A stretch of DNA of 64,000 bases, taken from Cyanobacteria bacterium P01_F01_bin.150. GTDB lineage: Bacteria; Cyanobacteriota; Cyanobacteriia; CAKZMO01. The DNA lies in NCBI GenBank assembly GCA_039189765.1, contig JBCCYL010000018.1, forward strand, positions 25,537 through 89,536, written 5' to 3'. The position numbers and the translations under genes were made by a program. Of this stretch, positions 23,895-62,158 are shown in pieces; the stretch's first letter is position 1, and every line of letters begins with the position of its first letter. The notes below the pieces were generated by a model. That model saw nothing but the letters and a program-made list of their open reading frames with translations, was not told the origin of the DNA and ran no database searches.

Positions 23895-26624
23895 TCAGCT
23901 AACCATGGATTTAGGAAACCGTTGCATCAGAGCAATCAACGCTGGCGAAGGGGGGCTAGAAGCTAATGTCTCAGGCTTGTTCCAGGTAAACGGTGCATCT
24001 TGGGCCGCAGATATCCATAGCAGGCGCTTTGCTCGGGTCATCGCCACATACAGTAACCGAAACTCCTCTGCAATCTTTTGCTGTTTTGCCTGTTCCCATA
24101 ACTGTTGAACATCCAAGTCGAGAAGACTAGAGTTACTTCCATTGGCTTTTGTAGATTCTGTCTGCTGGTTGTAAGGAGGCGGAGGAGAAGTCGTCGTCGT
24201 GTATCGCACCAGGGTTCGAATTTGGGCTTTAATCAGCTCGTTCAAATTAATCTTGCCTAAAAACTGCATTTGGGGCGGAATCCACGATCGCCCAGGAATC
24301 ATGCGTTCATGGAGAAACGGCAGAAACACCACATCCCAGTCCAGCCCCTTGGCCTTGTGCATCGTGATAATTGTCACCTGGCCTGCGCGGGTATATTGGG
24401 CTTCAAATTGTTCCGTTTCCACCGAGCCAAACTGTTCGGCTGTAGTAAGTTCCGTCAGCGCCGTTAACATTGCCGCAAGCGATGGGTCAAACGCCGTTTC
24501 CTGACACAGACGCTCCGAGAGTTTATCGGCGGTAGCCAACTCTGTCTGATCATACTTAAGACTAAAGGCAAGAAACGGAATAAGCTGGTGCTGGGGCAGT
24601 TCCAAGCGGGCTTTCAAGAGTTTAGTACAGTAGCGTCGTGCCATTGCAATTGCCTCAGAGGCAGGCTCCTCCAATGGCCCTGGATATAGGAAAGCCTCCG
24701 GCACCGTTGCGAGGGTATTAAAATCCTGCATGGGAATCAGTTTGCGGGTGGCCAACACTTTTAAGACCGCTTTGACATAGTTTGAAGAGTGGGGACGGTC
24801 AAGAAACCTTAGCAGCGTTAGCATTTCTGCTGGAATGGTGGAATGGCGATCGCGTTCCCCCACGTCATAGATCTCCAGACCCTGATCTTCCAAACTAACG
24901 GGAATATTGTAGTCCTGGGGCGATCTCAACCGATCGGCAATAAAGCGCCCCTGCTTATTTTCCCTGACTAAAATAGCAATTCGCAGCTCTGGATTTGCCT
25001 TTACCAATTGGACAATCCGCTGGGCAATTAACGTAACCGTGTGAAACGTATTGGGAGGACGGTAGCATTCTAGCCCCAGGCCAATGGGCGGAGGATTGGC
25101 ATCAGGCTGAGGGTCGGCGGCACTAACAGGGGCGATCGCCTGGTGACGAAAAGGGGCCGGGGTAAACCTATAGCGCTGATTCACCCACTCCAATAAAAAA
25201 TTAGCCGCATCCATAATAATGGCGCTACTGCGTCCAGCTTGGATCATTTCTGCCAGGTGTCCAGTGCGCTGACACTGGGCGCAAAACTGACGGAAAAAAA
25301 TAGGATTGGCAGGGGTGAAGGTGGAGTTGATGGCTTGGTTAGGATCGCCAACACGGATTAGATTTTGGATTTTGGATTTTGGATTTTGGATTTTGGGGAA
25401 GCTGTTGGGGAGTTGGGGAGTTGGGGAGTTGGGGAGTTGGAGAGTTGGAGGGTTGGAGAGTTGGAGGGTTGGGGCGGTTCGGTCCCCCTCTTGGGAGGGG
25501 TTAGGGGTGGGTTCTTCTGCCTTCTGCCTTCTGCCTTCTGCCTTTACTTCTGCCTTCTGCCTTCTGCCTTCTGCCTTTACTTCTGCCTTCTGCCTTCTGC
25601 CTTCAGTTGGGGGTTCAGTGGCAAGGATTTCGAGGAGGTGGGTTTGGAGGGGGGAGGAGTCTTGGGCTTCGTCTTCAAAAATGGCAAAGATGTGAGACTG
25701 CCATTGGTGACGGATGGGGGCGTTGTCTAAAACTTTGAGGGCTGCAAGCATCATATCGTCGTAGTCAAAAGCGTTGCACTGTTGTTGGACGGATTGGTAT
25801 TGCTCGTAAAGTCCGGTGGCGATCGCCAGCAGCTGTGTATAAATATCGCGACTATTCCCAGGGGTTTGATTTGTATCAAACCGGAAATGAGGCGGAGCAA
25901 CGGTTTCCCATATATGGCGCAGTTGGTCTGGCCGCAGGCCTGAACTTTTGGCCTCGTGAATGACAGTTTCTGCTAAATTTGGCAAAACTTCTGTCCGGAG
26001 TACTGACTGTCGCCGCAATCGTTCGGTTTCTTCGCCGTCAAAAAACTGACCCTGGACTAGGGTCTCAAACGCATCTGGATTGATGCTAATCCATCGTTCC
26101 ACTGCACTCCGCATTAGACGATGACTTTGGGTCGGCGTCATTAAGGTCATCTGACTCATATTGAGGCCGGACTGTTCGGGGTGGCGCTGGGCAATATGGA
26201 GGGCCAGACCATGTAGAGTATGGACGGAAAAGCCAATGGCGGGAAGGGCTAAGTTGCGCAGGTCTTCGCGGATTTTAGCTTTTAGATTAGCCGCAGCGGA
26301 CCGGGTAAAGGTGACAAGGATAAGCTGTTGGGATGGGGATGTTAAACTGACGGACTCAGCGGAGAAGGCCGTTTGTTGAGGCGTTGATTGAGGCGTTGGT
26401 TGGGCAAGCATTCGATTAGCTAGCACGATGACGGCGGCGATCGCCATTCCTGTGGATTTTCCGGCACCGGGTACGGCGGATACTGCTAATGGGCCGCCCT
26501 GCCAATCCACCATTCGCCGCTGTCCTGGACGCAAACTATCCTTGAGTCGCTGAAGTTCAGCTTGGATGGTCTGATCCTCCAGGGCCGTTGAAAATACTGG
26601 AGAGGAAGAGTCAAAGGAGATCAA
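23895..26624 (-). CDS. UvrD/REP-family ATP-dependent helicase with an in-frame repeat insertion
   Basis: AVPGAGKS, VTFTRSAA, EDEAQD, VGDPNQAI, TMHKAKGLDWD, LYVAMTRAK; start codon uncertain. Confidence 0.92.
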   Translation of the reverse strand: MISFDSSSPVFSTALEDQTIQAELQRLKDSLRPGQRRMVDWQGGPLAVSAVPGAGKSTGMAIAAVIVLANRMLAQPTPQSTPQQTAFSAESVSLTSPSQQLILVTFTRSAAANLKAKIREDLRNLALPAIGFSVHTLHGLALHIAQRHPEQSGLNMSQMTLMTPTQSHRLMRSAVERWISINPDAFETLVQGQFFDGEETERLRRQSVLRTEVLPNLAETVIHEAKSSGLRPDQLRHIWETVAPPHFRFDTNQTPGNSRDIYTQLLAIATGLYEQYQSVQQQCNAFDYDDMMLAALKVLDNAPIRHQWQSHIFAIFEDEAQDSSPLQTHLLEILATEPPTEGRRQKAEVKAEGRRQKAEVKAEGRRQKAEEPTPNPSQEGDRTAPTLQLSNPPTLQLPNSPTPQLPNSFPKIQNPKSKIQNLIRVGDPNQAINSTFTPANPIFFRQFCAQCQRTGHLAEMIQAGRSSAIIMDAANFLLEWVNQRYRFTPAPFRHQAIAPVSAADPQPDANPPPIGLGLECYRPPNTFHTVTLIAQRIVQLVKANPELRIAILVRENKQGRFIADRLRSPQDYNIPVSLEDQGLEIYDVGERDRHSTIPAEMLTLLRFLDRPHSSNYVKAVLKVLATRKLIPMQDFNTLATVPEAFLYPGPLEEPASEAIAMARRYCTKLLKARLELPQHQLIPFLAFSLKYDQTELATADKLSERLCQETAFDPSLAAMLTALTELTTAEQFGSVETEQFEAQYTRAGQVTIITMHKAKGLDWDVVFLPFLHERMIPGRSWIPPQMQFLGKINLNELIKAQIRTLVRYTTTTSPPPPYNQQTESTKANGSNSSLLDLDVQQLWEQAKQQKIAEEFRLLYVAMTRAKRLLWISAAQDAPFTWNKPETLASSPPSPALIALMQRFPKSMVS
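25361..25604. repeat. Composite tandem-repeat cassette within the helicase CDS
   Basis: (TTTTGGA)n + (GGGGAGTT)n + CCCCTCTTGGGAGGGG palindrome + (TTCTGCC)n. Confidence 0.92.
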
Positions 26625-41547: not shown

Positions 41548-42453
41548 TTAGTCTAACGTTGAGCCTGACGTTGATGCCCGTTCAAAACGGGGAATGGCTG
41601 CAATTAATGCTTGGGTGTAAGGATGCTGGGGATGATTAAAAATAGCGTCGGTTGGTCCCGTTTCTACGAGTTTGCCGCGATGCATTACTAGAATGCGATC
41701 GCACAATAGCCTCACCACGTTTAAGTCATGGGAAATAAACAGATAGCTCATGCCAAGCCGCTCCCGTAGATCTGCCAGCAAACGTAGAATCACCGCTTGA
41801 ACGGAGACATCCAAGGCCGACGTGGGTTCATCCAGAATAAGGAGTTTGGGATTGGTGGAGATCGCGCGAGCAATGCCAACCCGAGCATTTTGGCCTCCCG
41901 AGAGCTGATGGGGAAAACGGCTCAGCAGTTCGGGCGATAGCCCCACCTGAGTGGCCAGTTCTGTGGCTCGTTGTTTCAACCACTGTGGGCTACGGCGTTC
42001 TTGTTTAAATCCAAGACGCTTAATTGGTTCCGTGATGGTATTAAAGGCGGTAAATCGAGGATTAAGGCTATCGTTGGGGTCTTGGAAAACCATCTGTAAA
42101 TCTCCCCGCTGGGGACTACGGGCAAAAGCACTAATGGGCACCTGGCTGATATCTACGCCCTCAAATGTAATCTGGCCCGCAGTTGGCTCTAATAATCGGG
42201 CAATCAGACGGGTCAAAGTGGATTTCCCACAGCCGGATTCGCCCACAAGTCCAACGCTTTCCCCTGGTTGGATGCTAAAATCGATGCCATCCACTGCATG
42301 GAAAAACGATTTTTGGGTCTTTTGACCAGGAAGCCACTGTAGGATACTACCTTGCTTGAGAGGAAAGTGTTTTTGAAGACTAGTAACGGTTAGTAGTGAA
42401 TCTTGGGTTTGCTGAGCAGATGCATTGGTTGTTGAAAAGGATGGGGTAGACAT
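41548..42453 (-). CDS. Peptide/nickel-type ABC transporter ATP-binding subunit (DppF/OppF-like)
   Basis: GESGCGKS, LSGGQ, LILDEPT, HPYT. Confidence 0.93.
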   Translation of the reverse strand: MSTPSFSTTNASAQQTQDSLLTVTSLQKHFPLKQGSILQWLPGQKTQKSFFHAVDGIDFSIQPGESVGLVGESGCGKSTLTRLIARLLEPTAGQITFEGVDISQVPISAFARSPQRGDLQMVFQDPNDSLNPRFTAFNTITEPIKRLGFKQERRSPQWLKQRATELATQVGLSPELLSRFPHQLSGGQNARVGIARAISTNPKLLILDEPTSALDVSVQAVILRLLADLRERLGMSYLFISHDLNVVRLLCDRILVMHRGKLVETGPTDAIFNHPQHPYTQALIAAIPRFERASTSGSTLD

Positions 42454-42663
42454 GAGTAATGAAGTGTAATCAGAGTATGGGATGGCTTATTACTTTGCAA
42501 ACGGCCTTATTCCTTACTCAAGCTTTCTAGCGATAAGAATATATTGAGTAAGGGCTTGGACGAATTCATCAAGGGTTTGAGAATTATTTTTGCCCGAGGT
42601 GAAGGTAAGGTGCACGATTTCTTGATCATCTTGAAACTCGACAAATTCCAATCGTCAAAGCAA

Positions 42664-43542
42664 TCATGGGTCTTGAGGATAAGAATTAATTAGCTTCATA
42701 GTGTAGGGATGACTGGGCTGAGCAAATAGGGTATGAGCGGGAGCACTTTCCACCAAATGCCCAGCGTACATCACCAGGATGCGATCGCAATATTGTGATG
42801 CCAAAGCCAAATCATGGGTAATCACTATTGTTGCCATCTGACGCTCGGTGGTCAGGTCTCGAAGCAGATTCATTACGGTGGCTTGGGTGGTAACATCCAG
42901 GCCCGTCGTGGGTTCGTCAGCAATCAGCAGCTTGGGCGTACAGGCGAGGGCGAGGGCAATCATAATCCGCTGGCACTGTCCCCCCGATAGTTCATAGGGA
43001 TAGGCGTGGTAGCGTTGCTGAGGATCAGGAATATTAACGCTGGCAAGCAGTTCAATAGCACGGGTTTTAATGGCCGCACCGGAAAGAGTCGTATGACAGC
43101 GCAGCACATCCGCCAACTGCTGGCCCACCTTACGAATCGGATTAAGCGCTACTCTGGGATTTTGGAAAATCATCGATAGCTCTTTGCCCCGTAGCTGCCG
43201 CAGCCTTTTGTCCGGCATCTGTAATAGGTTGTAAACGCTATTGTCTTGCTCTTGACTCCATAACACCTCTCCGTTGGTGACCTTACCCGCGCGATCGAGA
43301 ATGCCCATAATGGCCATGGCCAAAACGGATTTGCCAGAGCCACTTTCGCCCACAATACCGATGGTTTCCCCCTGGTTAATATGAAAACTAATATGTTCCA
43401 GCGCGGTGACAACACCCGATCGCGTCCGGAATTCCACCGTCAAATCCCGCACGGACAGCAATGATGACAGTTGAGGTTTGGTAAGAGTTGAGAGTTCTTG
43501 AAGGGTTGGAGGGTTTGGGGTGCGATCGCTGTTGGAAACCAT
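42664..43542 (-). CDS. Peptide/nickel-type ABC transporter ATP-binding subunit (DppD/OppD-like); C-terminus possibly truncated
   Basis: [23 protein letters not shown]; ends shortly after HPYT. Confidence 0.9.
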
Positions 43543-43629
43543 ATTTCTTTATAAACACCAAACAGACTTGACTGATTGCATTTTACGAGGAGATGACTTG
43601 AGAGGAAGTTCTGTCTGTACAATTTGGCT

Positions 43630-44015
43630 CAACATCCTCATTCGATACCGATTGGAGGTCCCAACCATAGCCTTCACATTTGGAACCTCTTGAAGGGTTG
43701 CAGCATTTAGCAGTGTCGTAAACGCCAGTTGATAAATCTGTGTAATAAACAGGTTGTTTTTTCAGCTTTTTCAAGTCTTTTAAGAAGAGTTTGCGGTCTG
43801 GCTGACTGACAAAAGTCCTGAAACCCTTGATTTTCGGTTCATGACCCTGGCAACTAGAAGTTGCGGCTACACAAACGAAGTCCACCTCCGTGGACTATGT
43901 ACATCAAGGGTTCTGGTAACCCGCGTAGGCGGGTTTTGTTTGTGTAGCCGCAGTTTCCAACTGCCAGGGGGCAAAGTTTTGTCAGTCAATCAGGTTTGCG
44001 GTAGTCTGTTTTCAA
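43630..44015 (-). pseudogene. RelE/ParE-type toxin pseudogene (MITE insertion, frameshift, truncation)
   Basis: Removing the MITE and one TSD copy gives (M)KTDYRKLFLKDLKKLKKQPVY; a +1 shift continues TQIYQLAFTTLLNAATLQEVPNVKAMVGTSNRYRMR; the TTG start overlaps the antitoxin TGA. Confidence 0.78.
43798..43993. mobile_element. 196-bp MITE with 17-bp TIRs and a 9-bp TSD
   Basis: GTTTGCGGT|CTGGCTGACTGACAAAA ... TTTTGTCAGTCAATCAG|GTTTGCGGT. Confidence 0.88.
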
Positions 44016-44269
44016 TCTATGTCCTCTTGCTCCAAAAAGGCGTTTGCCGAAGGCATGGCGGAGCCAAACGCGTCTTTTTTGGACAACACAGGTGAATCAA
44101 TGGCCTCATCCATTGCTTTACTCAAGCAGTAGTCTTCCAGGTTTTCGGGCAAATCCTTCAGGGAGTCGGTGGATTGAGGCAGCAGCTTTCGCCAAAGTTC
44201 AATGGGAATAACGACTGCTTTAGGATTGCCATCGGAGTCAGTGAGATAGTCAATTGCAAGGTTAGACAT
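44012..44269 (-). CDS. Putative antitoxin partner of the RelE-like toxin
   Basis: YLTDSDGNPKAVVIPIELW..LEDYCLSKAMDEA; translationally coupled to the toxin remnant. Confidence 0.7.
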   Translation of the reverse strand: MSNLAIDYLTDSDGNPKAVVIPIELWRKLLPQSTDSLKDLPENLEDYCLSKAMDEAIDSPVLSKKDAFGSAMPSANAFLEQEDID

Positions 44270-44789
44270 GATAATTCCAGTGACGCTTGAGATACTACTG
44301 ACCAGTGTAGTCAAATGGATGAGGATGGGAAAGCGATCGCCATTGTCGTCATAAATCGCCATTGTCGTTACAGAGAATGGTGGGCTACACGTTAGCGATC
44401 GCTCTTCCATTCCTTTGTCTGGGCCTTGTTCTGCCTGTTTGGTGGCGATCGCGTCCATGTGCCTCTCCTTAAACTGGTGTTACTCAACTGTCGTTCATGT
44501 TTCTGGTTAAGCCTAAGGGATGGAGGGTTGCTTTGAGGAGGGCGATCGCTATTCTAATCATCGGCAATAGGCCGATTGCGTTCCTGTCGTCAAGGAATGG
44601 ATGGGGGTCTAAGAAGGCGATCATATAGCCAGGTAGACATGGTAAGCCTTGGATATCGGACTGCCTGGATTCAAAACGGTGGCGATGGTCTTGGCGGTCT
44701 GATTATCCGAAATTTTGGCAAAGTGCTTCTACGAACTTCATGAGTAGATACAGTTTCAGTAGGTGGTCTTTGAAGGGTTGAAACACATA

Positions 44790-44886
44790 TCTCTAAGGTG
44801 GCGGCTTTTTGCAAGAGAGATTTGATTTCTGGACTGACTCGCGCTTCACGTCGGGCGGTTGCTTTGAAGGGAGGTGGGGTATCCAT
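44790..44886 (-). pseudogene. DUF1778 (TacA-like) antitoxin N-terminal remnant
   Basis: TARREARVSPEIKSLLQKAATLE, after which similarity is lost. Confidence 0.6.
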
Positions 44887-45152
44887 ATTGCATAGAGCGG
44901 ATGGGACAATAAGCTATCTTCATTTCATCCGACGAATTGCCGTACGCAAATTCAGAGCCGAAATACAAGATGAGCACGCACAGAAGTAGAAAGACAGACT
45001 TATCTTCAATAAAAATACCTGAGCTGATTAGCTATTCTAGAAAAAAGCGTATCGAGAATTGTTAACATTATCAATGCATAATCAAGTTTATTAAACGCTA
45101 GCCATTATCTATATGATTACATTATTGAGAATGTGAGAGTTTTATACTTTGA

Positions 45153-47876
45153 TTAGGTAAAATCATTTTTTCCCGAAAGTAGAAACTCAAGAATATCGAT
45201 GTTTCTATACTCACAAGTCTGTAAAACGCTCAGCATTATTAGAAATTCTCGAATAGATTTCTCAGTAGGTCGCCCATCAGCAAATCTTCTATATTTAGCA
45301 AAGCTCTTTATGGCATGCTCGGCATTATTATTATTCCAGGGGACACCGTCATAATCCAGAAAAGTAAACAGTTTATTTTTATATTTATTGATTCGTTTCT
45401 GGTATTTTTTAGCTATTATAGACGAGAATTTTTTGCTCATAACGTAATCAATAAACTTATCCTTTAAGTCTTTGTGTTTGTTTAAATTTCTTTGTTTCAA
45501 TCCATACTTATCAATTGTTTGAACGATGTCACGTAGTAAAGGAGCGAACTTTTGAGTGAGATTCTTAAGTTCCTCGTCAAACGGATTACTTAGCAGATCT
45601 TCATTCATATCTCTAATTAAGTGTATGAGACATTTTTGTTGGGGACAGTCAATTGAGTCATAACCAGAAAAGAAATCAGAAATCAAAACACCTTGAAAAT
45701 CTTTAAGCAGCTCTTTCAGAAATTCTGCCTCTCTAGATTCTCGATACATAAAATAAACACTGTCCATACTTGTAAAAACCCACACATACCCCTTTTTGTC
45801 TCTCAAATTAATTTCCGTCTCGTCGATATGGAGAATTGGGCCCTTAATAATATTGCTTAAAATTTTTTCTGTTAGTGATTGAAAACGATTGGCAGTATAC
45901 GATTTAAATCGATAGATAGCTGGTCTTGAAATATTTAGGTTGAAGACATCAACTAAAGCTCGCCGGACCTTAAGCATGTTTTGACCAGCAACAATATTGT
46001 GATATACGCACCAAGCTCTTAATCCATTGCCATGCCTCTCTCTATGGTCTGGAACACCATCTGGGATAAATTTTGCATGGCATTTCATACATTGATAGTG
46101 CCATGACACGTAATCCGTAATCCATTTTTTCACCCCTCCGTTAAAAAACTTCAGGTCAATCAAGCGCCTTTGCACCTCTTTTTGTTGTGAAATTTTTCTA
46201 CTTTGGCATATTTTACATACCTTAGCATTTATTTTAATTAATTTATTTGCTTTTAGTTTTTTCTTCTTAGTGTTGCTAATATTTTTCTTTAATTGCTTGT
46301 TAGTTCTTATGAAAACCTTGTCTCTTTGATAATCAAAGTATGCATATTTATTAATAAGATTAAAGTTTGAAAAAATACACTTTTTTTTGCCAAAAACATG
46401 TTTCTTCCCAGTAGGAGACTTCATTTCATTTGTATGAATAAAGTCTTCCCTGGAATTGTCATTAGATAGATTTTCATCTTTAAATATTATTGATTCAATA
46501 AAACTACTTACTTTTTTTAAGGCTAAGCAATCATCATAATTATATTGAATCAATTGTTCTTTAAATTCATAATTTTGAGTGCTTTCCCAATCCTCTCGCC
46601 ATACTATACTTTGGAGACCATTGGCTTTACTATTTCTCCACTCAAATCTCAAGAACTTAGCAATTTCCTTCAGACTGTTAGACCAGGTTGGGAAATAGAT
46701 ATGTTGATGAATAATTGAGAGTAGATTAACTGTCTTTTTTTCAACATCAGTGAGTATTATTTGATATTCATCAGGTAACAGTGATCTCATCCGTCTTAAA
46801 GCTAGTTTGTCATAACTTCCGAAATGAAAAAGTAAATAATTATCATAACAATTCAATTTTTTTAGAAACTTGATGTACACATCTTTTTGTTGTTCTTCAC
46901 TATCGATCCAAAAGGAGTAATGCTGTTGAGTTCCATTTTCCTCAATCAATAAACCAATCAAATAGTCAAAATTTCTGGATGGTAGCCCCTCAACATCAAA
47001 ATACATATAAACTTTTGTGCGAGGTAATTGGGGATTCCCATGAATATATATTTTATTCTCACGCAAAGCTAGTGCTTGGAGAGGATAACTATGGGGAGAA
47101 GAAGATGACTTAGCTCTTTTGGGTTTCCGTCTAGAGCGAAAAGTATATGAAAGTTGGGTAACAGTAAAGATTCCTTTATGATTGTGCCGAGCAATTTCAG
47201 TCTCGCTTATTCCCCGCAATAGGCTAAGATGATCCTTGGCTAGAGCATCTTCTCTGCAATGATTCTTAAATTGACAAATATCACAGTAACGGTTGAGATA
47301 AAGAGATGGCTTACTCTGATCATTAATATACTCAAGTAAAGAGTTCAAAATCTGCGATAATTCTTCAAAATAGGGTGATAGTTTAATCCTAGATCGTTTT
47401 AAATTATTTCCAAATATAATTGTTCCATAATCAGGAATTTTATCCTGAATTTTCCCTAATACAAAGGCTTTATAAGTAAGAGATAATTTACTTTTCTTGT
47501 TAGTTTTAGCTTCTCTATAAAACATAATTGGTTCATAGTAAAATTCTCCAAGTGATGATTTACCAGAAACTCTTTTAACTGCATCAATCTGAGAGTGATA
47601 ATCGTTCTTTGTAATGGAGATATTAAGTATCAAATCTTGACCTGAATATAAATTTGGTGGTTGCAAGACCTCATGTTTTGATTGCGAATTATTTCTTAGA
47701 GTCGCTTTTAGATTTTGCTGTACCTCTAAGCGAAATTTTCTATTCAATTTTGAAACGAGTTGAATATACTCAGTATCCTGACCATCAACATCATTCAAGA
47801 GGAGATATGGCTTATACTTACAAAAAAGGAATGCATCAAATAGTTCATTCGTAATATGAGACTTGGCAACCGTCAT
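45153..47876 (-). CDS. TM0106/RecB-like nuclease + RNase H-like exonuclease + IS66-type Zn-finger and DDE transposase fusion
   Basis: N-terminal C (FCKYK) plus CDICQFKNHC; LSLLRGI HhH; FDVEG/HFGSYD/YNYDDC; CKIC..CMKC; HIDET, ISDFFSGY, QKCLIHLIRD, NNNAEHAIK; GGAGA RBS. Confidence 0.82.
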   Translation of the reverse strand: MTVAKSHITNELFDAFLFCKYKPYLLLNDVDGQDTEYIQLVSKLNRKFRLEVQQNLKATLRNNSQSKHEVLQPPNLYSGQDLILNISITKNDYHSQIDAVKRVSGKSSLGEFYYEPIMFYREAKTNKKSKLSLTYKAFVLGKIQDKIPDYGTIIFGNNLKRSRIKLSPYFEELSQILNSLLEYINDQSKPSLYLNRYCDICQFKNHCREDALAKDHLSLLRGISETEIARHNHKGIFTVTQLSYTFRSRRKPKRAKSSSSPHSYPLQALALRENKIYIHGNPQLPRTKVYMYFDVEGLPSRNFDYLIGLLIEENGTQQHYSFWIDSEEQQKDVYIKFLKKLNCYDNYLLFHFGSYDKLALRRMRSLLPDEYQIILTDVEKKTVNLLSIIHQHIYFPTWSNSLKEIAKFLRFEWRNSKANGLQSIVWREDWESTQNYEFKEQLIQYNYDDCLALKKVSSFIESIIFKDENLSNDNSREDFIHTNEMKSPTGKKHVFGKKKCIFSNFNLINKYAYFDYQRDKVFIRTNKQLKKNISNTKKKKLKANKLIKINAKVCKICQSRKISQQKEVQRRLIDLKFFNGGVKKWITDYVSWHYQCMKCHAKFIPDGVPDHRERHGNGLRAWCVYHNIVAGQNMLKVRRALVDVFNLNISRPAIYRFKSYTANRFQSLTEKILSNIIKGPILHIDETEINLRDKKGYVWVFTSMDSVYFMYRESREAEFLKELLKDFQGVLISDFFSGYDSIDCPQQKCLIHLIRDMNEDLLSNPFDEELKNLTQKFAPLLRDIVQTIDKYGLKQRNLNKHKDLKDKFIDYVMSKKFSSIIAKKYQKRINKYKNKLFTFLDYDGVPWNNNNAEHAIKSFAKYRRFADGRPTEKSIREFLIMLSVLQTCEYRNIDILEFLLSGKNDFT

Positions 47877-48114
47877 GACAATCTCCAGACATAAAAGTAG
47901 ATATCATCAAGGTAACTGATTCAACATATATCATCCTAAATATTTATTGCATAACAAGTAGTCTAATAGTTAGGCTTATATCATTGGCAACGTATTGAGA
48001 ATTTCTGTGCTTTATACCCCTACGAAACTCATCTCTATTTAATTAATAAACCGATAGGTAAGTAGATTAACTATCAATAAACTTTAATATTCGCATCTCC
48101 ATCAGAGACTAACC

Positions 48115-48327
48115 ATGCAACCCATCATTGAACGTGAAACCATCGAACATCTTAGCCCAGTGGCCGCCCGGATGATTTTGGCCGCCCTACCCGATCACAT
48201 TCGAGAATCCTTTGAACGCCGAGCAGCCGATATTGAATATCCTGTAGAGGCCGTATTGGAGATGGCCCTCGCTGGCTTTCTGGACAGTGAATCTCTAAGT
48301 TTTTCGGATTGTAATCCCAGATATTGA
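48115..48327 (+). CDS. Small hypothetical protein
   Basis: 70-aa ORF with ATG start and a plausible helical sequence. Confidence 0.6.
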   Translation: MQPIIERETIEHLSPVAARMILAALPDHIRESFERRAADIEYPVEAVLEMALAGFLDSESLSFSDCNPRY

Positions 48328-48462
48328 GATGCTTATGGAAAATGAGTGATTTCGATAATGGGGTGCGATCGCCCCTTCCCCTCCCTACCTATCCTCACTG
48401 AGGTAACCTATAGGCTACGATAAGTCTGATCCTAAAGTAACGTTCAGGCATAAGTCGGCTCA

Positions 48463-48927
48463 ATGGCAAAACTTTACTACCGGGGCATGGTTGCCAAGGA
48501 TGGTAAGCCTAAATTAGGACATAGCGCTCGCCTTCTGGGAATTAGACCCGGTATTGATATCGACGTGACCCATCTGCCTCAAGGGTGGCTAGATGAAAAG
48601 GGTTGCTTACGCCCAGAGTCGGAGAGGGTCGATTCGGACCAACCAGTAGAAGTAGCTATCCGAAATACAAAAGGAATGTCTACATCATTATCAATCGAAG
48701 GGTTACCGCCTTTTCGTAAACCTGCTGCCTTTGGCGGAATAGGCAAAGATCCTCTGTGGCAAATTGAAAGCGAGTATATTACGGGCGATTTAGACGCTGT
48801 TCAAGATAGCGCCACCCACGTCAGCATTATGCCAAAGGTTACAATGCGTCTAGAAAGGTATGAGGCAGCATTAGCAAAAACTCAAGACTATTGGCAAAAG
48901 GTGATTGAAGATGGCGTGGGTATTTAG
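48463..48927 (+). CDS. Putative Tse2-like ADP-ribosyltransferase-fold toxin
   Basis: LYYRGM, GMSTS, FGGIGKDPLWQI, HVSIMP..M.LERYEAALA pattern. Confidence 0.55.
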   Translation: MAKLYYRGMVAKDGKPKLGHSARLLGIRPGIDIDVTHLPQGWLDEKGCLRPESERVDSDQPVEVAIRNTKGMSTSLSIEGLPPFRKPAAFGGIGKDPLWQIESEYITGDLDAVQDSATHVSIMPKVTMRLERYEAALAKTQDYWQKVIEDGVGI

Positions 48928-49435
48928 TCTATCGGTAGAGTGCGGCTCAGACCAAAGCACGGCAGAACAGTTTGCTGGGCATTACGAAGACATTTCTTGG
49001 TCCTTGTCAAATGGCACTCAGTCCAAATGTTTGTCTACTCTTTTTCAAGACATTGATGAACACTGGTGGTGTCGTATCTGTCCTAATGGCATCAGCGAAA
49101 TCGGCATTGAAGCGCCAGAATCTGCTTACTTAATGACAGAGTTAGGCATTTTGCTATATCAACATTTGCAGTCTGCGCCTGCGTTTCGATATGCCCTTGT
49201 CGGCCTTGAAGTTGATGAATTTAGAACATTTGAAGAGTTACTGGACGAGACATCTATCTTTAATATGCCGGGATTAGTTTTATCCAATAACATTTGGCAG
49301 TTAATGGGATCTCCAACCACCTTTAGATCCTTTAGTCCAGACTATGTTTGGCAGCCCTACGAAGGTGAAACCTATAAACCTTTGACCGTATCTCCATTGT
49401 TAAAAGAACAGATGAATCGATTGTTGGCGGCATAA
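48911..49435 (+). CDS. Hypothetical acidic protein, candidate immunity protein
   Basis: Overlaps the 3' end of the putative toxin; FRYALVGLEVDEFR. Confidence 0.55.
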   Translation: MAWVFSLSVECGSDQSTAEQFAGHYEDISWSLSNGTQSKCLSTLFQDIDEHWWCRICPNGISEIGIEAPESAYLMTELGILLYQHLQSAPAFRYALVGLEVDEFRTFEELLDETSIFNMPGLVLSNNIWQLMGSPTTFRSFSPDYVWQPYEGETYKPLTVSPLLKEQMNRLLAA

Positions 49436-49730
49436 GCATAGATGGGAGAATTATTTGAACCGATCAGATCGGCAATCAGATCGGCAAAAATAACTCGTAT
49501 AAACTTCCATAGAGCTTGAACATCCTAGTTTACGGGGAATTTAGCGATCGGCAATGTATGCGAATGAAATAATCGACTTGACGAAACCAACGCTGTCAGA
49601 TGTGACTTCTGTGTTGGAAGATTGCTAATACTCCCAATGGTCCGGTTAAAATCGCTTTTCCCCTTGCGGCTGTGGAACGGATTTTTCCAGCTCTCTATCC
49701 GTCCTAAGGGATCTGCTCGAAAATAAAAGA

Positions 49731-49788
49731 TCGGTGCGTTACGGCTGTCGCCTTTTCTTGAGTGTCCCTTGGGCTATACACACCCTAC
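49731..49788 (-). repeat. GTAG-type REP-like element, extended variant
   Basis: Reverse complement reads GTAGGGTGTGTATAGCCC...AGGCGACAGCCGTAACGCACCGA; compare 22261 and 23808. Confidence 0.6.
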
Positions 49789-49793
49789 GCAAA

Positions 49794-50684
49794 CTATGTT
49801 CTCATCCTTGGATCAATTAAATCCCTTAATCCATCCCCCAGCAGATTAAAGCAAAACACGGCCAGCATCAGTACCGCACCGGGAAAAATCGCCAGCCACC
49901 ATTCCCCCGAAATAATATAGGTTGCCCCCTCCGCTACCATAATCCCCCACTCCGCCGTGGGTGGACGAACACCTAAGCCAATAAACGATAGCCCCGCCGC
50001 ATTGAGAATGGCCCAGCCCATATTCAGGGAAATATGCACCATCATCACGGGCAGCACATTGGGAAACAAATGAAAGGCCATAATCCGCCAGTGGCTATTG
50101 CCCGCCAGCCGAGCCGCCTCTACATAGCCAGCACTGCGCCGCACCAGCACCTCCGATCGCACCACCCGCGTATATAGCGGCAAGTTAATCACCGCCGTGG
50201 CGTAGATAATATTCTCCACCGTATTTCCCAGAGCTGCCACCAATCCCATCGCCAGGATAAACAGGGGAAACGCCATAATCGTATCGATAATCCGGCTAAT
50301 AATATGGTCCCACCATCCCCCCGAATAGCCCGCTATCGTGCCCAATACGCTGCCCAATCCAAAAGACAAAGCCACCGCTATCACCGCAATCCCCAAATCT
50401 AGCCGAGTGGCGACCATGGCACGACTGAGGATATCGCGACCGAGATCGTCAGTGCCAAACCAGTGGGCCAAGGATGGGGGCGAAAGGGCGATCGCCGCAT
50501 TACTGGCAAGGGGATCATAGGGGGCGATCGCCTCACCCAAAATCGCAAACACCACCAACAGGAAAAAGAGTAAAAACGCCCCAAACGTCACCCAATTTTC
50601 ACTAATAACGTAACGGGCTTGGCTCCAAAAGGACCCTGGTCTAGAAGACAGTGGAGCCTGATTCGTCTGATCGGTAAGGGTCAT
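49794..50684 (-). CDS. ABC transporter permease (DppC-like)
   Basis: HWFGTDDLGRDI, YVEAAR, GLSFIGLG..PPTAEWG. Confidence 0.93.
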   Translation of the reverse strand: MTLTDQTNQAPLSSRPGSFWSQARYVISENWVTFGAFLLFFLLVVFAILGEAIAPYDPLASNAAIALSPPSLAHWFGTDDLGRDILSRAMVATRLDLGIAVIAVALSFGLGSVLGTIAGYSGGWWDHIISRIIDTIMAFPLFILAMGLVAALGNTVENIIYATAVINLPLYTRVVRSEVLVRRSAGYVEAARLAGNSHWRIMAFHLFPNVLPVMMVHISLNMGWAILNAAGLSFIGLGVRPPTAEWGIMVAEGATYIISGEWWLAIFPGAVLMLAVFCFNLLGDGLRDLIDPRMRT

Positions 50685-51709
50685 GCATCGACTCCTGCCC
50701 GTGGGTCAATAACGGTATACAGCAGATCAATCAACAGGTTTAACACCACGTACAGCAGTGCCATGGTCAGCACAAAGCCCTGGACCGCCGCATAGTCAGA
50801 GGCCACCAATGCCGAGACCGCATAGGAGCCAATCCCGGGCCATGCAAATACTTTTTCCACCAGGACATTGGCTCCCAGCAGAAAGGAGAAGACTACCCCC
50901 AAGGTTGTGACAATAGGCAATAGGGAATTGCGAAAGGCATAGACAAACAGGATGGTAAAAGGGGAGAGGCCGCTGGTTCGGGCCGTACGGATAAAGTCGC
51001 TGGATAACACTGCTAGCATGGAGGCACGGGTGACTCGGGCCAGGGGGGCCAGGGCAAATAGCCCCAGGGTGATGGCCGGAAGAATAAGCTGGGAAAGGGC
51101 TGCGGTAAAAGTGTCTAAACGTCCTTCGAGAAGACTATCAATCAGATACAGTCCCGTCACTTTTTCGGGGGGAGACACCAAAATATCTAAACGCCCTAGG
51201 GGGGCTGGGGCAATACCTAGGTGGAAGTAAAAGACGTAGACCAGCAGCAATCCGGTAAAAAAGGTGGGTAGAGATACACCAGCGGTGGCCAGCACTCGAA
51301 CGCCGTGGTCAATCCAGGAGTTGGGGCAGGTGGCGGCAAAAATTCCAAGCGGTAGGGCCAAGGCCAGGGAAAATAGAAGTCCAGCAAGGGTTAGTTCTAG
51401 GGATGCTGGTAGACGGGTGGTGAGATCGGAGACGACGGTTTGGCCAGTGGTTAGGGAGGTGCCTAGGTCGCCCCGTAGAAGTTCACCAACGTAAATAAAA
51501 AATTGGACTGGAAGGGGGCGATCGAGTCCCAGGGTTGCACGAATCTGATCGATGGCCTCTTGGGTAGCAGCAGGTCCGGCAAAGTAAGCCGCAGGATCTC
51601 CGGGCAATGCTCGGGTTAGTAGGAAAGTAATAATGATTACCCCGATAATGCTGGGAACTGCCGCTAAAATTCGTTTGGCAATAATAGTAATAGTGGAAGA
51701 ACGAGCCAT
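50681..51709 (-). CDS. ABC transporter permease (DppB-like)
   Basis: LPGDPA, GDLGTS, LPASLEL, VEKVFAWPGIG. Confidence 0.93.
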   Translation of the reverse strand: MARSSTITIIAKRILAAVPSIIGVIIITFLLTRALPGDPAAYFAGPAATQEAIDQIRATLGLDRPLPVQFFIYVGELLRGDLGTSLTTGQTVVSDLTTRLPASLELTLAGLLFSLALALPLGIFAATCPNSWIDHGVRVLATAGVSLPTFFTGLLLVYVFYFHLGIAPAPLGRLDILVSPPEKVTGLYLIDSLLEGRLDTFTAALSQLILPAITLGLFALAPLARVTRASMLAVLSSDFIRTARTSGLSPFTILFVYAFRNSLLPIVTTLGVVFSFLLGANVLVEKVFAWPGIGSYAVSALVASDYAAVQGFVLTMALLYVVLNLLIDLLYTVIDPRAGVDA

Positions 51710-51940: not shown

Positions 51941-52186
51941 CTAAACAGCTTGCTTAAGAGATCTCATATTCAAAACCGTATTCTGTCTCAATGGTTCAAT
52001 ATGGGATTCTGAAACAACCAACACGGCGATAGTTTCTCCCAAAGCATTAAAAACTTCCAAGCTGTAGCCATCTTCACCACTAGAAACAGGATGATGATCC
52101 ACAACTGTCGCCACATCACCCTGTTGCAATTGATGTTGAGGTAAATCCTGGCTTAGAGCCACCCGTGAAAATAATTCAAATGTCAT
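51941..52186 (-). CDS. DUF4926-like protein
   Basis: VALSQDLP..GDVATVVD..GYSLEVFNALGETIAV. Confidence 0.8.
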   Translation of the reverse strand: MTFELFSRVALSQDLPQHQLQQGDVATVVDHHPVSSGEDGYSLEVFNALGETIAVLVVSESHIEPLRQNTVLNMRSLKQAV

Positions 52187-52521
52187 GCGATCGCCTCCTT
52201 ATCGGGATAAAGCGTAATAAATTTGGTTCGTTGAGTTTCATACTCAATCATCCAAACGGTGATTACAGCCAGTTTTTTTCCATTTGGCCCCGTCAGAGAG
52301 CCGCAAATACGGTAAACATCACCAAATTGATTAGGTTCATCACTGAGTACCGCATCCTTCGGTAAAATCTGGGTTCTTAGATCTTGTTCCAATTGTTGCC
52401 AATTATCTTGATCATAACCAGCTTGTGCCAGGAATTTCGACTTATCATCTGCCTCACGCCAGATTAGCAAGTACCGTGTTAACTTAGCTGATGCAATAGT
52501 GGCATCTTGAGACAGTTTCAT
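52183..52521 (-). CDS. DUF6883-like protein (predicted toxin-type domain)
   Basis: AKLTRYLL..DKSKFLAQAGY..FGDVY..LTGPNG..TVW..FITLYP; ATGA overlap with the DUF4926 gene. Confidence 0.72.
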   Translation of the reverse strand: MKLSQDATIASAKLTRYLLIWREADDKSKFLAQAGYDQDNWQQLEQDLRTQILPKDAVLSDEPNQFGDVYRICGSLTGPNGKKLAVITVWMIEYETQRTKFITLYPDKEAIA

Positions 52522-52606
52522 TTTGAATGCGAATAGATCCAAACAAAAGTCTTACATATCTTTCCAAATTGTCTTAAGAACAAAGGCGATCGCTCCCACA
52601 AACTCC

Positions 52607-56570: not shown

Positions 56571-59156
56571 ATGAACCCAACCCCAGGCCCATCAGGACCA
56601 GCATCAAACCTCAAAGCCCAAGCGAAAGAGGCTGTTACTGCGTTAAAAAATGAAGACTACGGAGAAGCGATCGCCCTGCTTGAGCCATTACTAGAGCAGG
56701 CCACCAAACCCTCCACCGAAGTCTATCTCCGGCGCAACCTAGCCAAAGCCTATATGGGATTAGACAATGCCCTGGCTGCATTTCACCAGTGCAATCATCT
56801 GAGGCGTAATCCCGACCCCGAAGTCCGCAAATGGGCAAAGAAGGCGATTAATCATCTCAGAAAAAAATATCCATATATTGAGAATTCTGCTACACCGATT
56901 CCTGATGGGGGGACGGGTTTTGTGCCTTTGGGTGAGGGAGTTGGGGCGTTAGGCTTAGAAAAGCAAGGGAGCGGGGGAGCAGAGGAGCAGGGGAGCGGGG
57001 GAGGTAGCTCAATTCAGTCCTCGAAAGCTTCAACACCTCAACACTTCAACTCTCAAACTCTCCAAAATCCAAAATCCAAAATCCAAGATCAACCCACCCC
57101 TAGCCCCTCCCAAGAGGGGGATCGGAGTCTCCCCTCCCCCCCAACACCCCGACTCTTCAACTCTCCAACTCCTCAACTCTCCAACTCTCCAACTCCCCAA
57201 AATCCAAAATCCAAAATCCAAAATCCAAAATCCTCTGTTTTTCCCTGGAAAAATGCCGATCGGGCTAAGAGCTGGTCTCCTATTAGGGCTAAATCAACCT
57301 TTGCTAGCCGAATTAATACTATTCTGGTGCATGGTTGGACTGCGATCGCGCTCTGGATTGTTGCGAAAAGCTTTCTTCAAATTGGCATGGCATTGGGTAA
57401 TCCCCTCCGGGAGAATATGCAGCGGTTTATGCGATTTGAACGGTGGTATTTTCTGGAACAGTATCCGGGACGGGTGGCAGCCATGGTGTTGGTAGGGCTA
57501 TTGCTCTTATCGCCGTGGATACTGGATTTATTTTTGAAATGGGGCCACCGGGCTAAGCGAGTCTCCATAGATGACTTAGCTCAACATAGTCCAGAGGCGA
57601 AGAAAGTATTGCAGCAGTCCAGTCGCAAGCAGAATCATCCCGTTCCTGGTCTTCGACTACTGCCGACCCAGACTCCTGTCATACTCAGCTATGGGTTGCG
57701 ACCTCGTTTTTCTCGCATTGTAGTTAGTGAAGGGCTATTGCGCCAGCTAGATGATGAAGAAATAGCGACGCTTATTGCGATAGAGCTAGCCCACATTCGC
57801 GGCTGGAATTTAGCGCTAGTCACCTTAGTGACCCTATCAGCTCAAATTTCCTATGGACTGTGTCAGCTTTTCGCAGGCTGGGCTGATGGACTCGGTAATG
57901 CTTTTTTACAGCAAGTAGGAGCTGCCTTTGCCGCAATCGCCTACGGTATGTTCTGGCTAGTGCGTGGGACTGGCCTGTGGCTATCCCGCAGCCGATTTGA
58001 ACACAGCGATCGCGCTGCCGTCAATTCAACCGGGAACCCCAACGCCCTAACCCGAGCCTTAATGAAACTGGCGATCGCCACCGCCACCGATATCCGCCGC
58101 CAAGGCCACACCGCCCCGCTACTCGAACAGTTCGAATGGCTAATGCCCGTCGGCTACCGTTCCGCCATCAGCATCGGCACTATCTTCCCCCTTCAATATC
58201 AAGCGTCTCAATTAAAGGAAGAAGGGGTATTAAAGGCAGAAGGCAGAAGGCAGAAGGCAGAAGAACCCACCCCTAGCCCCTCCCAAGAGGGGGATCGAAC
58301 CTCCTCTAACTCCCCAACTCCCCAACTCTCCAACTCTCCAACTCCCCAACTCCTCAACTCCCCAACTCTCCTAACCTGGGACTATCAAAACCCCCACCGT
58401 AGCTGGTTAAGCATCAACAACACCCATCCTCCCCTAGGCGATCGCCTTTATCGTATTGCCCAGCATGCAAAAAGATGGAAGCTTGAATCAGAGTTGGACC
58501 TGCCCGTAGCATCTCGATTGTCACCGTCTCCCAAAATGAAAATCCAGGTGGCACCATTTGTCGGCTTTTTTGTGGGAGCCGCGTTAACGCTGATTCTATG
58601 GTTTGTCGGTGTTTTAGCCGATCAGTTTGACTGGCGAGCCATTGAATGGCTACAGTACGATTCCCAATCTATTTTTCGTGGCATGCTGGCGCTGAGCTTT
58701 AGCTTTGGCATAATTTTGCGCTTTAACGATTTCTTTCCAGACATCAAGCCATCGACACAACGTCAGGAAGAATTAACGGAGTTGTTAACCCCACCAGACC
58801 ATGTGCCTGCGGATAGCCAACCCGTCCAGCTAGAGGGAAAGTTATTGGGGCGGCGTGGAACAGACAATTGGCTTAACCAAGATTTAATTCTGCAAACTCA
58901 AACTGGATTGGTCAGACTCCACTGTATTTCCATATTGGGTGCGGTGGGCAATTTAATATTTGATGCGATTCGTCTCCAATCACTCAAAGGACGGACAGTA
59001 ATAGTGACGGGCTGGCTGCGGCGGGGGGCAACTCCCTGGGTCGATGTGGACAAAATCAAAAGCCAGCAAGGCAGAACGATTCAAGCTGGCCATCCAATCT
59101 GGTCCATGCTCCTGGCGACAATAGCGGCAATCTGGGGAGCTTATGTCCTTTACTAG
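56571..59156 (+). CDS. TPR + M48 (HtpX-like) membrane protein with a degenerate zinc motif and two in-frame repeat inserts
   Basis: IVVSEGLL, IELAH in place of HExxH, DRAAV..TGNPNAL, THPPLGDRL. Confidence 0.82.
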   Translation: MNPTPGPSGPASNLKAQAKEAVTALKNEDYGEAIALLEPLLEQATKPSTEVYLRRNLAKAYMGLDNALAAFHQCNHLRRNPDPEVRKWAKKAINHLRKKYPYIENSATPIPDGGTGFVPLGEGVGALGLEKQGSGGAEEQGSGGGSSIQSSKASTPQHFNSQTLQNPKSKIQDQPTPSPSQEGDRSLPSPPTPRLFNSPTPQLSNSPTPQNPKSKIQNPKSSVFPWKNADRAKSWSPIRAKSTFASRINTILVHGWTAIALWIVAKSFLQIGMALGNPLRENMQRFMRFERWYFLEQYPGRVAAMVLVGLLLLSPWILDLFLKWGHRAKRVSIDDLAQHSPEAKKVLQQSSRKQNHPVPGLRLLPTQTPVILSYGLRPRFSRIVVSEGLLRQLDDEEIATLIAIELAHIRGWNLALVTLVTLSAQISYGLCQLFAGWADGLGNAFLQQVGAAFAAIAYGMFWLVRGTGLWLSRSRFEHSDRAAVNSTGNPNALTRALMKLAIATATDIRRQGHTAPLLEQFEWLMPVGYRSAISIGTIFPLQYQASQLKEEGVLKAEGRRQKAEEPTPSPSQEGDRTSSNSPTPQLSNSPTPQLLNSPTLLTWDYQNPHRSWLSINNTHPPLGDRLYRIAQHAKRWKLESELDLPVASRLSPSPKMKIQVAPFVGFFVGAALTLILWFVGVLADQFDWRAIEWLQYDSQSIFRGMLALSFSFGIILRFNDFFPDIKPSTQRQEELTELLTPPDHVPADSQPVQLEGKLLGRRGTDNWLNQDLILQTQTGLVRLHCISILGAVGNLIFDAIRLQSLKGRTVIVTGWLRRGATPWVDVDKIKSQQGRTIQAGHPIWSMLLATIAAIWGAYVLY
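56963..57232. repeat. Composite repeat cassette 1 in the M48 gene
   Basis: GGGAGCGG/GCAGAGGA units, (TCCAAAA)n, CCCCTCCCAAGAGGGG, (CTCTCCAA)n. Confidence 0.85.
58232..58370. repeat. Composite repeat cassette 2 in the M48 gene
   Basis: (GGCAGAA)n + AACCCACCCCTAGCCCCTCCCAAGAGGGGGATCG + (CTCCCCAA)n. Confidence 0.88.
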
Positions 59157-59295
59157 TCTTAGTTACGTCGTTTCAGGACTTTTCTGCACCACTAAGTAGA
59201 TTACGCTGTAACCTCATTGCTGCAATCTACAACAAAGAGTATGCCAAAACAGCTTGACACAGTCAGAAAAATTTAATTTGCAATGAAGTCTAATG

Positions 59296-59355
59296 TTCAG
59301 GTGTGTGCATCTTGTCAAGGATTTAGAGGCGCTACATAGAAAACGGTAGGGTCAG
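59296..59355 (+). mobile_element. IS right-end remnant, copy 1
   Basis: 58/60 identical to 62099-62158; encodes QVCASCQGFRGAT*. Confidence 0.7.
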
Positions 59356-61899: not shown

Positions 61900-62158
61900 C
61901 ATACCAATTGACACGTTCCCTCTATACTAGACGGGGAGTGCATGGGCATCAAGCCAGTAGCAACCGTCGATTACGGGGATGGGCATTGATCAATAACTTT
62001 CGTCCCTTTGCCCCTCGCAGTGGGCAGCAACGCTCATTTAGTAGCCCTGCCCATCGCCTCAGCCTGAAACAATACCATCTTCTATTGGCTACACAATCTT
62101 CAGGTGTGTGCATCTTGTCAAGAATTTAGAGGCGCTACATAGAAAACGGTAGAGTCAG
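61900..62158 (+). mobile_element. Transposase 3' remnant plus IS right end, copy 2 (family unassigned)
   Basis: HGHQASSNRRLRGWALINNFRPFAPRS..SPAHRL, then frameshifted WLHNLQVCASCQEFRGAT*; terminal 60 bp repeated at 59296. Confidence 0.6.

Follow-up and report, generated by a model that had tools for sequence, protein, structure and literature searches.

A widespread fusion of a TM0106 module to an IS66-type transposase, possibly a single-gene mobile element

How does an IS66-type transposase come to be joined to a module that resembles a Cas4-type nuclease, and what might such a protein do? The locus that raises this question is gene P0001 in a 64,000-nucleotide stretch of Cyanobacteria bacterium P01_F01_bin.150 (contig JBCCYL010000018.1; hereafter the window), an uninterrupted open reading frame (ORF) of 907 amino acids (aa) that an earlier sequence-only reading had described as a Cas4/RecB-like nuclease, an exonuclease and an IS66-type integrase in one polypeptide. 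How the large IS66 family of insertion sequences transposes, and what its accessory proteins do, is poorly understood. We found that the fusion is a large, old and stable family and no one-off, and we tentatively explain the gene as a single-gene, self-mobilising element derived from IS66 with non-canonical ends, a reading to which we assign a probability of about 0.45.

Profile searches delimited the parts of the protein. The NCBIfam model TIGR03491 covered residues 8-459 (model positions 1-461 of 462; 251 bits versus a cut-off of 97.45), PF13482 RNase_H_2 matched residues 291-456 (92.2 bits versus a cut-off of 22, E 4.5e-26) and PF03050 DDE_Tnp_IS66 matched residues 617-865 (101.4 bits versus a cut-off of 23.1, E 7.7e-29), and the IS66 transposase equivalog NF033517 aligned to residues 540-899 at 172.3 bits, just under its cut-off of 180. 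The PADLOC Cas4 model aligned to residues 14-208 (E 3.9e-9); two other Cas4 models stayed below their curated cut-offs (PF01930, 14.9 versus 22.7; TIGR00372, 17.9 versus 65), and DUF2779 was borderline in the Pfam scan. An AlphaFold2 model built from 26 sequences had a mean pLDDT of 85.7 and was poor only in the linker at about residues 468-537 (pLDDT below 50 at residues 468-476, 488-497 and 514-537). Compared with the PDB by Foldseek, it returned one match per domain: the IS256-family ISCth4 transposase 6xgx for the DDE part (E 4e-8, the best match), 8d3l, the Cas4 of a Cas4-Cas1-Cas2 complex, for the Cas4-like part (E 2e-6, target TM-score 0.65-0.67) and 5mdn, a family B polymerase and the weakest of the three, for the exonuclease part. 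The domain order proposed by the sequence-only reading is therefore supported both by hidden Markov models (HMMs) and by a confident structure model with DDE transposase, Cas4 and PolB exonuclease matches. Residues 211-285 are labelled helix-hairpin-helix (HhH)-like from a reading of their motif, not from an HMM match; at 0.49, the mean pairwise identity here exceeds that of every other block, and G235, Q241 and other positions are invariant. The end of the linker is also strongly constrained, A512, Y513, F514, Y516 and Q517 being nearly invariant.

We then asked which active sites are kept, counting residues in an alignment of 26 diverse full-length relatives. The Fe-S-type cysteines, with C19 standing alone and followed by C198-x2-C201-x5-C207, are kept in 26, 26, 26 and 25 of the 26 relatives, respectively, and are predicted to bind a cluster. 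The exonuclease has a complete motif set, with D294/E296 (FDVEG; Exo I, DxE), D/E356 (GSYD; Exo II, D/E) and Y445/D449 (YNYDDC; Exo III, Yx3D) kept in all 26, from which exonuclease activity is predicted. The Zn-ribbon cysteines C554, C557, C596 and C599 are conserved in 25-26 of the 26 relatives, and the DDE triad D685 (HIDET), D734 (ISD) and E853 (NAE), together with C749 and H752, in every relative. Every motif that the sequence-only reading had named is thus present and conserved, and the retention of the DDE triad and Zn ribbon indicates that transposase chemistry has not been given up.

In contrast, the PD-(D/E)XK nuclease site is gone. Its first position holds E in 0/26 and D in 1/26 relatives and its Lys position holds K in 0/26; the window protein has M118 and Y120 where these residues would stand, and a HMMER alignment to Cas4 8d3l places the family's P-h-h-F opposite P-V-E-Y-K. 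Three unfused plasmid TM0106 proteins keep D...E-V-[IV]-D-T-K and Q-x3-Y, whereas the fused proteins have hydrophobic residues or Arg there. Because the (D/E)xK and QxxxY residues of the unfused proteins are replaced family-wide, the Cas4-like domain is very probably not a nuclease in the fused family, and we conclude from the alignment that it is a putative cluster-bearing scaffold or DNA-binding domain. It is also the least conserved structured block, with a mean pairwise identity of 0.27 compared to 0.40-0.49 for the exonuclease, HhH-like and DDE blocks. The earlier label of a Cas4/RecB-like nuclease therefore holds for the fold and the four cysteines and fails for the catalytic residues, and naming the N-terminal domain 'nuclease' is probably wrong for all fused members. 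With this site lost, end-processing chemistry would therefore fall to the DEDDy exonuclease alone.

The family is large. In a 5.8-billion-protein collection, 3183 of 7999 scored candidates match; among representatives at 50% identity, 8449 pass a threshold of E<=1e-3, and 1109 of E<=1e-30. Both PF03050 and PF13482 are carried by 119 of the 120 best protein matches, at lengths near 910 aa, and full-length relatives were found down to 31% identity. Among reference genomes taken at one per species, 623 of 666 candidate stretches were confirmed as relatives, which is a lower bound; our locus-level results refer to the best 80 of these at least 623 loci, forming 74 loci. These 74 span at least nine bacterial phyla, among them Cyanobacteriota, Acidobacteriota, Planctomycetota, Verrucomicrobiota, Nitrospirota, Chloroflexota, Bacteroidota and Pseudomonadota, and one archaeal metagenome-assembled genome. 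Evolutionary distances of the N- and C-terminal halves are correlated across 26 members (Mantel r 0.74; 0 of 2000 permutations as high), so the fusion is old and its two halves have stayed together ever since. The one-off chimera that the sequence-only reading had weighed against itself is not what we found: the family is large, and its catalytic DEDDy and DDE residues are conserved.

Database names for members vary between 'IS66 family transposase' (given to some by PGAP), 'TM0106 family RecB-like putative nuclease' and 'predicted RecB family nuclease', an inconsistency that hides the family. A full-text literature search, which excludes subscription journals and ISfinder, returned no study of the TM0106-IS66 fusion, and an ISfinder entry for it may exist. 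The sole mention of the combination that we found is a row for Solibacter usitatus in Table 1 of a 2012 survey, which lists four genes with pfam03050 and COG2251 and does not discuss them further (PMC3469429). The full-length gene occurs in 0 of 50,697 phage records and in 2 of 72,556 plasmids, each once; these two single plasmid copies were rejected as too few to define element ends. Many C-terminal relatives of 300-490 aa, 45-63% identical and mostly on short contigs, also exist; they could not be told apart from fragments at the protein level and were not accepted as true stand-alone genes.

Family members look foreign and selfish because of their low gene GC, similarity across phyla, decay and diverged multiple copies. 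Of 73 loci (L037, identical to L036, was left out), 56 have a gene GC that falls short of the flank GC by 0.03 or more; in 15 the two agree to within 0.03, and in 2 the gene has the higher GC. The median gap is 0.06. The window copy fits this pattern: its ORF has a GC of about 0.32 compared to about 0.50 in the surroundings, and belongs to a block roughly 3.1 kb long with a GC of 0.28-0.36 against about 0.45-0.55 on both sides in the fine GC profile. The HIP1 motif (GCGATCGC), a signature octamer of the host that occurs 79 times in the window where shuffles predict about 0.6 sites, is missing altogether between 44549 and 48365. The ORF map, GC profile and HIP1 map thus agree with the sequence-only reading of a 907-aa ORF in an AT-rich, HIP1-free stretch. 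The gene in the window was probably acquired horizontally, and the AT-rich block is likely, from its composition, to be the extent of the acquired DNA. Across phyla, L018, L033 and L014 share 77-81% nucleotide identity over the ORF and are labelled Acidobacteriota (Blastocatellia), Gemmatimonadota (Gemmatimonas) and Chloroflexota (Caldilineaceae).

As for decay, the match is complete and in a single frame at 48 of the 74 loci; a contig end truncates it at 10, and at 16 it is incomplete within the contig. Seven of these 16 lack only an alignable N-terminus (starting at residue 40-98), and the other nine carry frameshifts or lack at least 170 residues, so that at least 9 of 74 copies are decayed (L015, L019, L020, L025, L028, L041, L044, L073 and L074). 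The two parts of L073 (4001-4835 and 5876-7777) are separated, between residues 285 and 284, by a frameshift and about 1 kb of unrelated DNA. Four of the 74 loci hold two co-oriented copies 0.4-2.7 kb apart that are only 33-63% identical, far more tandem pairs than chance placement would give. A fixed A/B two-gene arrangement was rejected, as only the second copies of L053 and L007 are alike (44%), which makes it likelier that copies arrived repeatedly in one neighbourhood than that they form an operon. Diverged copies on separate contigs occur in two further genomes. All in all, the cases of several copies in one genome or locus are L008/L009, L012 (two copies) with L031, L053, L054 and L007. 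Copies sharing a genome are only 33-80% alike, in short-read assemblies that collapse identical repeats.

In this family, a short, complete IS66-type transposase (Zn ribbon and DDE core) is permanently fused behind the TM0106 module. In the mechanism that we favour, the gene would be, or would recently have been, a single-gene selfish element from IS66. The DDE core would perform hydrolysis and strand transfer, cutting and joining DNA, and the N-terminal module would stand in for the accessory proteins TnpA/TnpB. DNA ends may be held through the Fe-S and HhH parts, and the exonuclease may trim 3' tails such that a defined, clean 3'-OH enters the DDE site for strand transfer. The ends of the element would differ from classical inverted repeats, and horizontal transfer would have brought the window copy into an island, rich in toxin-antitoxin genes, that interrupts an opp/dpp-type ABC transporter operon.

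The search for element ends weighs against self-mobility on several counts. In the window flanks we found no GTAA...TTAC ends, as the sequence-only reading had reported, no inverted repeat above chance and no 6-10-bp direct repeat adjoining any inverted pair; the best inverted pair (45074-45092 / 48076-48096) was rejected because it scores no better than shuffled sequence. A wide-flank test, aligning 250 nt upstream against 300 nt downstream at the 40 loci with complete ORF and flanks (window included), gave a mean z of 0.9 for inverted and 1.2 for direct repeats, and inverted z>4 in 4 of 40, namely the REP-like L062 and three loci without duplication or common motif. A narrow-flank test of windows around the ORF ends of 46 loci exceeded z>3 in four, one REP-like and three without duplication. 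Ordinary IS66 inverted ends with 8-bp duplications, which the sequence-only reading had named as evidence against itself, were thus found neither in the window nor in the sets of 40 and 46 loci. The same scripts were run as a control on six ordinary IS66-family copies from plasmids and detected GTAAG-type ends in three (L083, L084 and L086; z 4.6-9.4). IS66 terminal inverted repeats typically start with GTAAG, a feature that these controls reproduce, and clean 8-bp duplications flank L084 (TAGAATTT) and L086 (GCTGAAAT). Because the test misses half of ordinary IS66 copies, one negative locus means little; GTAAG-type ends in 0 of 46 fused loci versus 3 of 6 controls is a real difference.

Comparisons between copies point in the same direction. 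In relatives that are 75-82% identical in DNA and have unrelated flanks, similarity ends no more than about 22 nt before the ORF and about 35 nt after it, none of the seven informative pairs shows similarity beyond the ORF, and no conserved end sequences are visible, although functional terminal repeats would be expected to show in this comparison. Near-identical copies in different contexts were not seen among the loci, and recent transposition is thus without support. A scan of the first 150 of 277 flank segments, covering 15 of 28 loci, turned up no host gene split by the insertion, and the housekeeping genes adjoining the insertion are complete in these 15 loci. A non-mobile gene spread by gene transfer would fit all of these findings equally well.

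Several candidate ends were considered and rejected. The inverted repeats of L051, L016, L070, L072, L045 and L002 have no flanking duplications and no shared motif, and the strong inverted repeats in L027 and L062 are host REP-like repeats recurring in both orientations (Table 1). Related copies (L008/L009/L010, L018/L033/L014 and others) did not yield ends, as their similarity stops at the ORF, and a larger unit of the gene plus AbiE in L050/L058/L065 lacks inverted ends; these three loci share an upstream flank and may therefore be orthologous. In 3 of 40 loci the ORF is bracketed, at varying distance, by imperfect direct repeats that are 25-40 nt long and 80-87% identical: those in L003 (40 nt, 3731-3770 / 6849-6888) and L068 (39 nt, 3889-3927 / 6933-6970) are longer than the 25-nt repeat of the window, which reaches a z of only 3.0 versus shuffles. 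Their meaning is uncertain, and three of 40 loci are too few to build on.

Accessory genes were also sought. No tnpA/tnpB-like ORF adjoins the window gene, as the sequence-only reading had noted, and no tnpA/tnpB-type neighbour cluster recurs in the 74 loci; the ordinary IS66 controls L080 and L086 do have an annotated tnpB. These accessory genes mark the canonical IS66 group only.

The leading alternative, which we consider somewhat unlikely, is a domesticated transposase: a host- or island-borne nuclease or DNA-end-processing enzyme that does not move itself and is selected and spread horizontally in accessory islands, for example as a single-protein defence or in DNA capture. The absence of inverted ends and duplications from every locus tested and the confinement of DNA similarity to the ORF speak for it, as does the intactness of 48 of 74 copies in spite of the lack of visible recent copies. 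So do the frequent neighbours AbiEi/AbiEii, HicAB, HigBA-like and VapC, the RelB-like and Tse2-like genes of the window, and a WYL regulator beside unfused TM0106 in two of three plasmid loci and a WYL/WCX regulator at the fused locus L010. However, PADLOC gave only Cas4 homology, no conserved partner gene or operon accompanies the family, and several diverged copies per genome, four tandem pairs and decay in at least 9 of 74 copies would be expected more of selfish elements. That all 26 relatives keep the DDE triad and the Zn ribbon also sits poorly with domestication.

Less probable still is a DDE enzyme that works without sequence-specific inverted ends, the N-terminal module with its iron-sulfur, HhH-like and exonuclease parts recognising and trimming free or nicked ends that the IS66 core would join into a target, or a transposase-derived single-protein machine that captures or destroys foreign DNA. 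If true, the end-joining variant could show mobile genes defining their ends in a new manner, and the capture or destruction variant would mean that Cas4-Cas1-like logic has arisen independently from an insertion sequence.

We think it distinctly unlikely that the gene is an ordinary single-ORF (ISBst12-like) IS66 element whose ends were missed because they are short, diverged or farther away. Strong IS66 HMM matches and the PGAP name of some members agree with such an element, the end test did miss three of six ordinary copies, many homologues lie on 3-4-kb contigs, and a 2890-nt Microvirga contig has a coverage label of 200 that resembles that of collapsed repeats; this contig was itself rejected as a collapsed repeat, since its first base falls within the ORF and it lacks terminal repeats. 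Against it stand the absence of the GTAAG-type signature from the 46 fused loci compared to its presence in half of the controls, the lack of similarity beyond the ORF in the informative pairs, the NF033517 score below cut-off and a 540-residue N-terminal module that has no counterpart in the control copies, whose transposase genes are about 1.4-1.8 kb long. Finally, a chance or recent chimera or a functionless, decaying pseudogene is most improbable: the single copy in the window, the island of toxin-antitoxin debris and the odd composition might suggest one, but the ORF is uninterrupted with every conserved catalytic and metal-binding residue present, full-length relatives reach down to 31% identity and the two halves co-evolve.

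The surroundings of the gene are listed in Table 1. One family copy occurs in the window, in a 6.2-kb island (43543-49793) that separates the permease genes from the ATPase genes of an opp/dpp-type ABC transporter. Because the island outside the fused gene has host-like GC and HIP1 sites (one to the right, at 48365, and four to the left), this accessory island seems to be older than the fused gene, which would have entered it later. The toxin-antitoxin surroundings described by the sequence-only reading are real, comprising a RelB-like antitoxin, a weak TacA-like remnant and a Tse2-like toxin domain, and the 176-aa ORF that overlaps the Tse2-like ORF may encode its immunity partner. Across the family loci, no neighbours recur except modules of the toxin-antitoxin or abortive-infection type and other transposases. 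The folding of the 224-nt 5' flank in the window is poorer than that of shuffled sequence (z +1.95), no Rfam match above gathering score for a non-coding RNA was found in the flanks, and no conserved 5' flank is shared with the closest genome relative, L001.

Other features of the window were noted in passing. Just beyond the permease genes, an overlapping DUF4926/DUF6883 pair (51941-52186 and 52183-52542, both minus strand) has a toxin-antitoxin-like layout. Dispersed repeats of 110-160 nt at 25367-25563, 57091-57233 and 58215-58374 are 84-90% identical, the copy at 25.4 kb being inverted relative to those at 57-58 kb, and a 64-nt repeat at 59292-59355 and 62095-62158 is 95% identical; both sets are unrelated to the fused gene. 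A lone GC-rich hairpin at 43917-43940 (minus strand; AACCCGC...GCGGGTT) matches Rfam CRISPR-DR28 at 28.4 bits, below the gathering score of 35, and is probably a terminator or REP-like hairpin without an array.

Table 1. Features of the fused gene, of its surroundings in the window and of other family loci. Positions refer to the window or to the named locus; domain functions are predictions.
Feature	Locus	Position	Strand	Evidence or remark
Whole ORF, TM0106 module + IS66-type DDE transposase	Window	45153..47876	-	TIGR03491 251 bits, PF03050 101 bits
Cas4-like domain, residues 8-210	Window	47247..47855	-	PADLOC, Foldseek 8d3l, alignment
HhH-like segment (DxLSLLxGI...GIFTxxQL) + basic linker, residues 211-285	Window	47022..47246	-	
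Predicted DEDDy-type 3'-5' exonuclease (RNase_H_2 / PolB-exonuclease-like), residues 286-460	Window	46497..47021	-	PF13482, Foldseek 5mdn
Poorly conserved linker ending in AYFDYQR motif, residues 461-540	Window	46257..46496	-	Low pLDDT
Four-Cys Zn ribbon, residues 541-616	Window	46029..46256	-	NF033517 540-899
IS66-type DDE core, residues 617-905	Window	45162..46028	-	PF03050
AT-rich, HIP1-free block containing ORF	Window	45000..48100	.	GC profile + HIP1 map; limits approximate
25-nt imperfect direct repeat, copy 1	Window	45123-45147	.	20/25 identical; brackets ORF with copy 2
25-nt imperfect direct repeat, copy 2	Window	47993-48017	.	117-141 nt upstream of start codon
opp/dpp-type ABC transporter ATPase genes	Window	41548-43542	-	
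RelB-like antitoxin	Window	44012-44458		Island
Weak TacA-like remnant	Window	44671-44886		Island
70-aa ORF, no family	Window	48115-48327		Upstream of Tse2-like ORF
154-aa ORF with Tse2-like ADP-ribosyltransferase toxin domain	Window	48463-48927	+	E 6.3e-15
176-aa ORF, no known family	Window	48905-49435	+	Overlaps Tse2-like ORF downstream
opp/dpp-type ABC transporter permease genes	Window	49794-51709	-	
REP-like palindromic repeats	L027	3386-3416, 6424-6454, 6496-6526, 6549-6579		Clustered around gene, mimic terminal inverted repeats
REP-like palindromic repeats	L062	3839-3870, 6817-6831, 6858-6874		Clustered around gene, mimic terminal inverted repeats
Tandem copies	L053	754-3474 + 3914-6610		Both copies intact
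Tandem copies	L054	517-3222 + 4001-6187		
Tandem copies	L012	1747-4461 + 5522-8005		
Tandem copies	L007	3209-5926 + 8633-9922		
AbiEi/AbiEii neighbours	L050/L058/L065, L066, L015			
AbiEii neighbour	L017			
HTH_37 neighbours, with or without Gp49	L006, L004, L022, L072			
HicA neighbour with UPF0150	L032			
VapC neighbour	Acaryochloris plasmid			

These data describe thousands of relatives that have an exonuclease and an iron-sulfur module in cis in place of accessory genes, with no classical ends seen. If the gene is self-mobile, transposon ends would here be defined and processed by a different route; if it is not, it would represent a widespread recruitment of a transposase to another DNA transaction, like Cas1 and RAG. 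Among known systems, the closest to the C-terminal part are IS66 TnpC and the single-ORF ISBst12-like proteins, which have the same Zn ribbon, DDE_Tnp_IS66 core, triad and C-x2-H motif. The ISBst12-like subgroup has a single ORF without tnpA/tnpB, a layout with which our single-ORF control copies L083 and L084 agree and which the fused loci share. The fused protein differs from TnpC by the added TM0106 module, its loci differ from ordinary IS66 by the lack of the GTAAG inverted ends and 8-bp duplication found in controls, and its identity to ordinary plasmid IS66 transposases is only 22-26%.

The N-terminal part is closest to unfused TM0106 proteins (TIGR03491 / COG2251), with which it has in common the four cysteines, a GI-x-T segment and the DEDDy residues. 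In place of the transposase, the three unfused proteins from plasmids, of 1110-1136 aa, have a long C-terminal part. Tandem AAA domains have been reported in COG2251 (PMC3985635), and on this basis we take the C-terminal part to be a helicase; the same source predicts 3'-5' exonuclease activity for COG2251/PF13482 and notes its union with DUF83. On two plasmids the unfused gene is adjoined by a divergent WYL-domain regulator (L076, 1225-2214; L077, 1102-2094), and a WYL/WCX regulator lies just downstream of the fused gene in L010 (7061-8068).

Cas4 and the Cas4-Cas1 fusions have the same fold and the same 1+3 cysteine Fe-S arrangement as the fused family, and Cas4-Cas1 likewise joins an end-handling domain to an integrase-type enzyme. 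The fused family differs in lacking the catalytic D/E/K residues of Cas4 and in having a DDE enzyme, not Cas1, as the partner. The likeness to Cas4-Cas1 drawn by the sequence-only reading therefore stands as an analogy and goes no further: no Rfam CRISPR family reached gathering score in the window (repeat families were scanned, not cas genes), and apart from weak Cas4 homology PADLOC matched no defence system.

Tn7 TnsA-TnsB pairs a PD-(D/E)XK-fold protein with a DDE enzyme, a combination that the fused family also makes. In Tn7 the PD-(D/E)XK partner is an active endonuclease that cuts 5' ends, whereas the corresponding site is gone in the fused family, and the analogy therefore fails at the chemistry. 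TnsA has been listed as a PD-(D/E)XK transposase (PMC3424549). A DEDD-type exonuclease domain of RNase H fold also occurs in MrfB/YprB, presumably a member of PF13482. MrfB works with a separate helicase in DNA repair, whereas here the predicted exonuclease is built into the polypeptide of the transposase itself. MrfB has been described as a 3'-5' DNA exonuclease (bioRxiv 10.1101/2025.09.15.676423).

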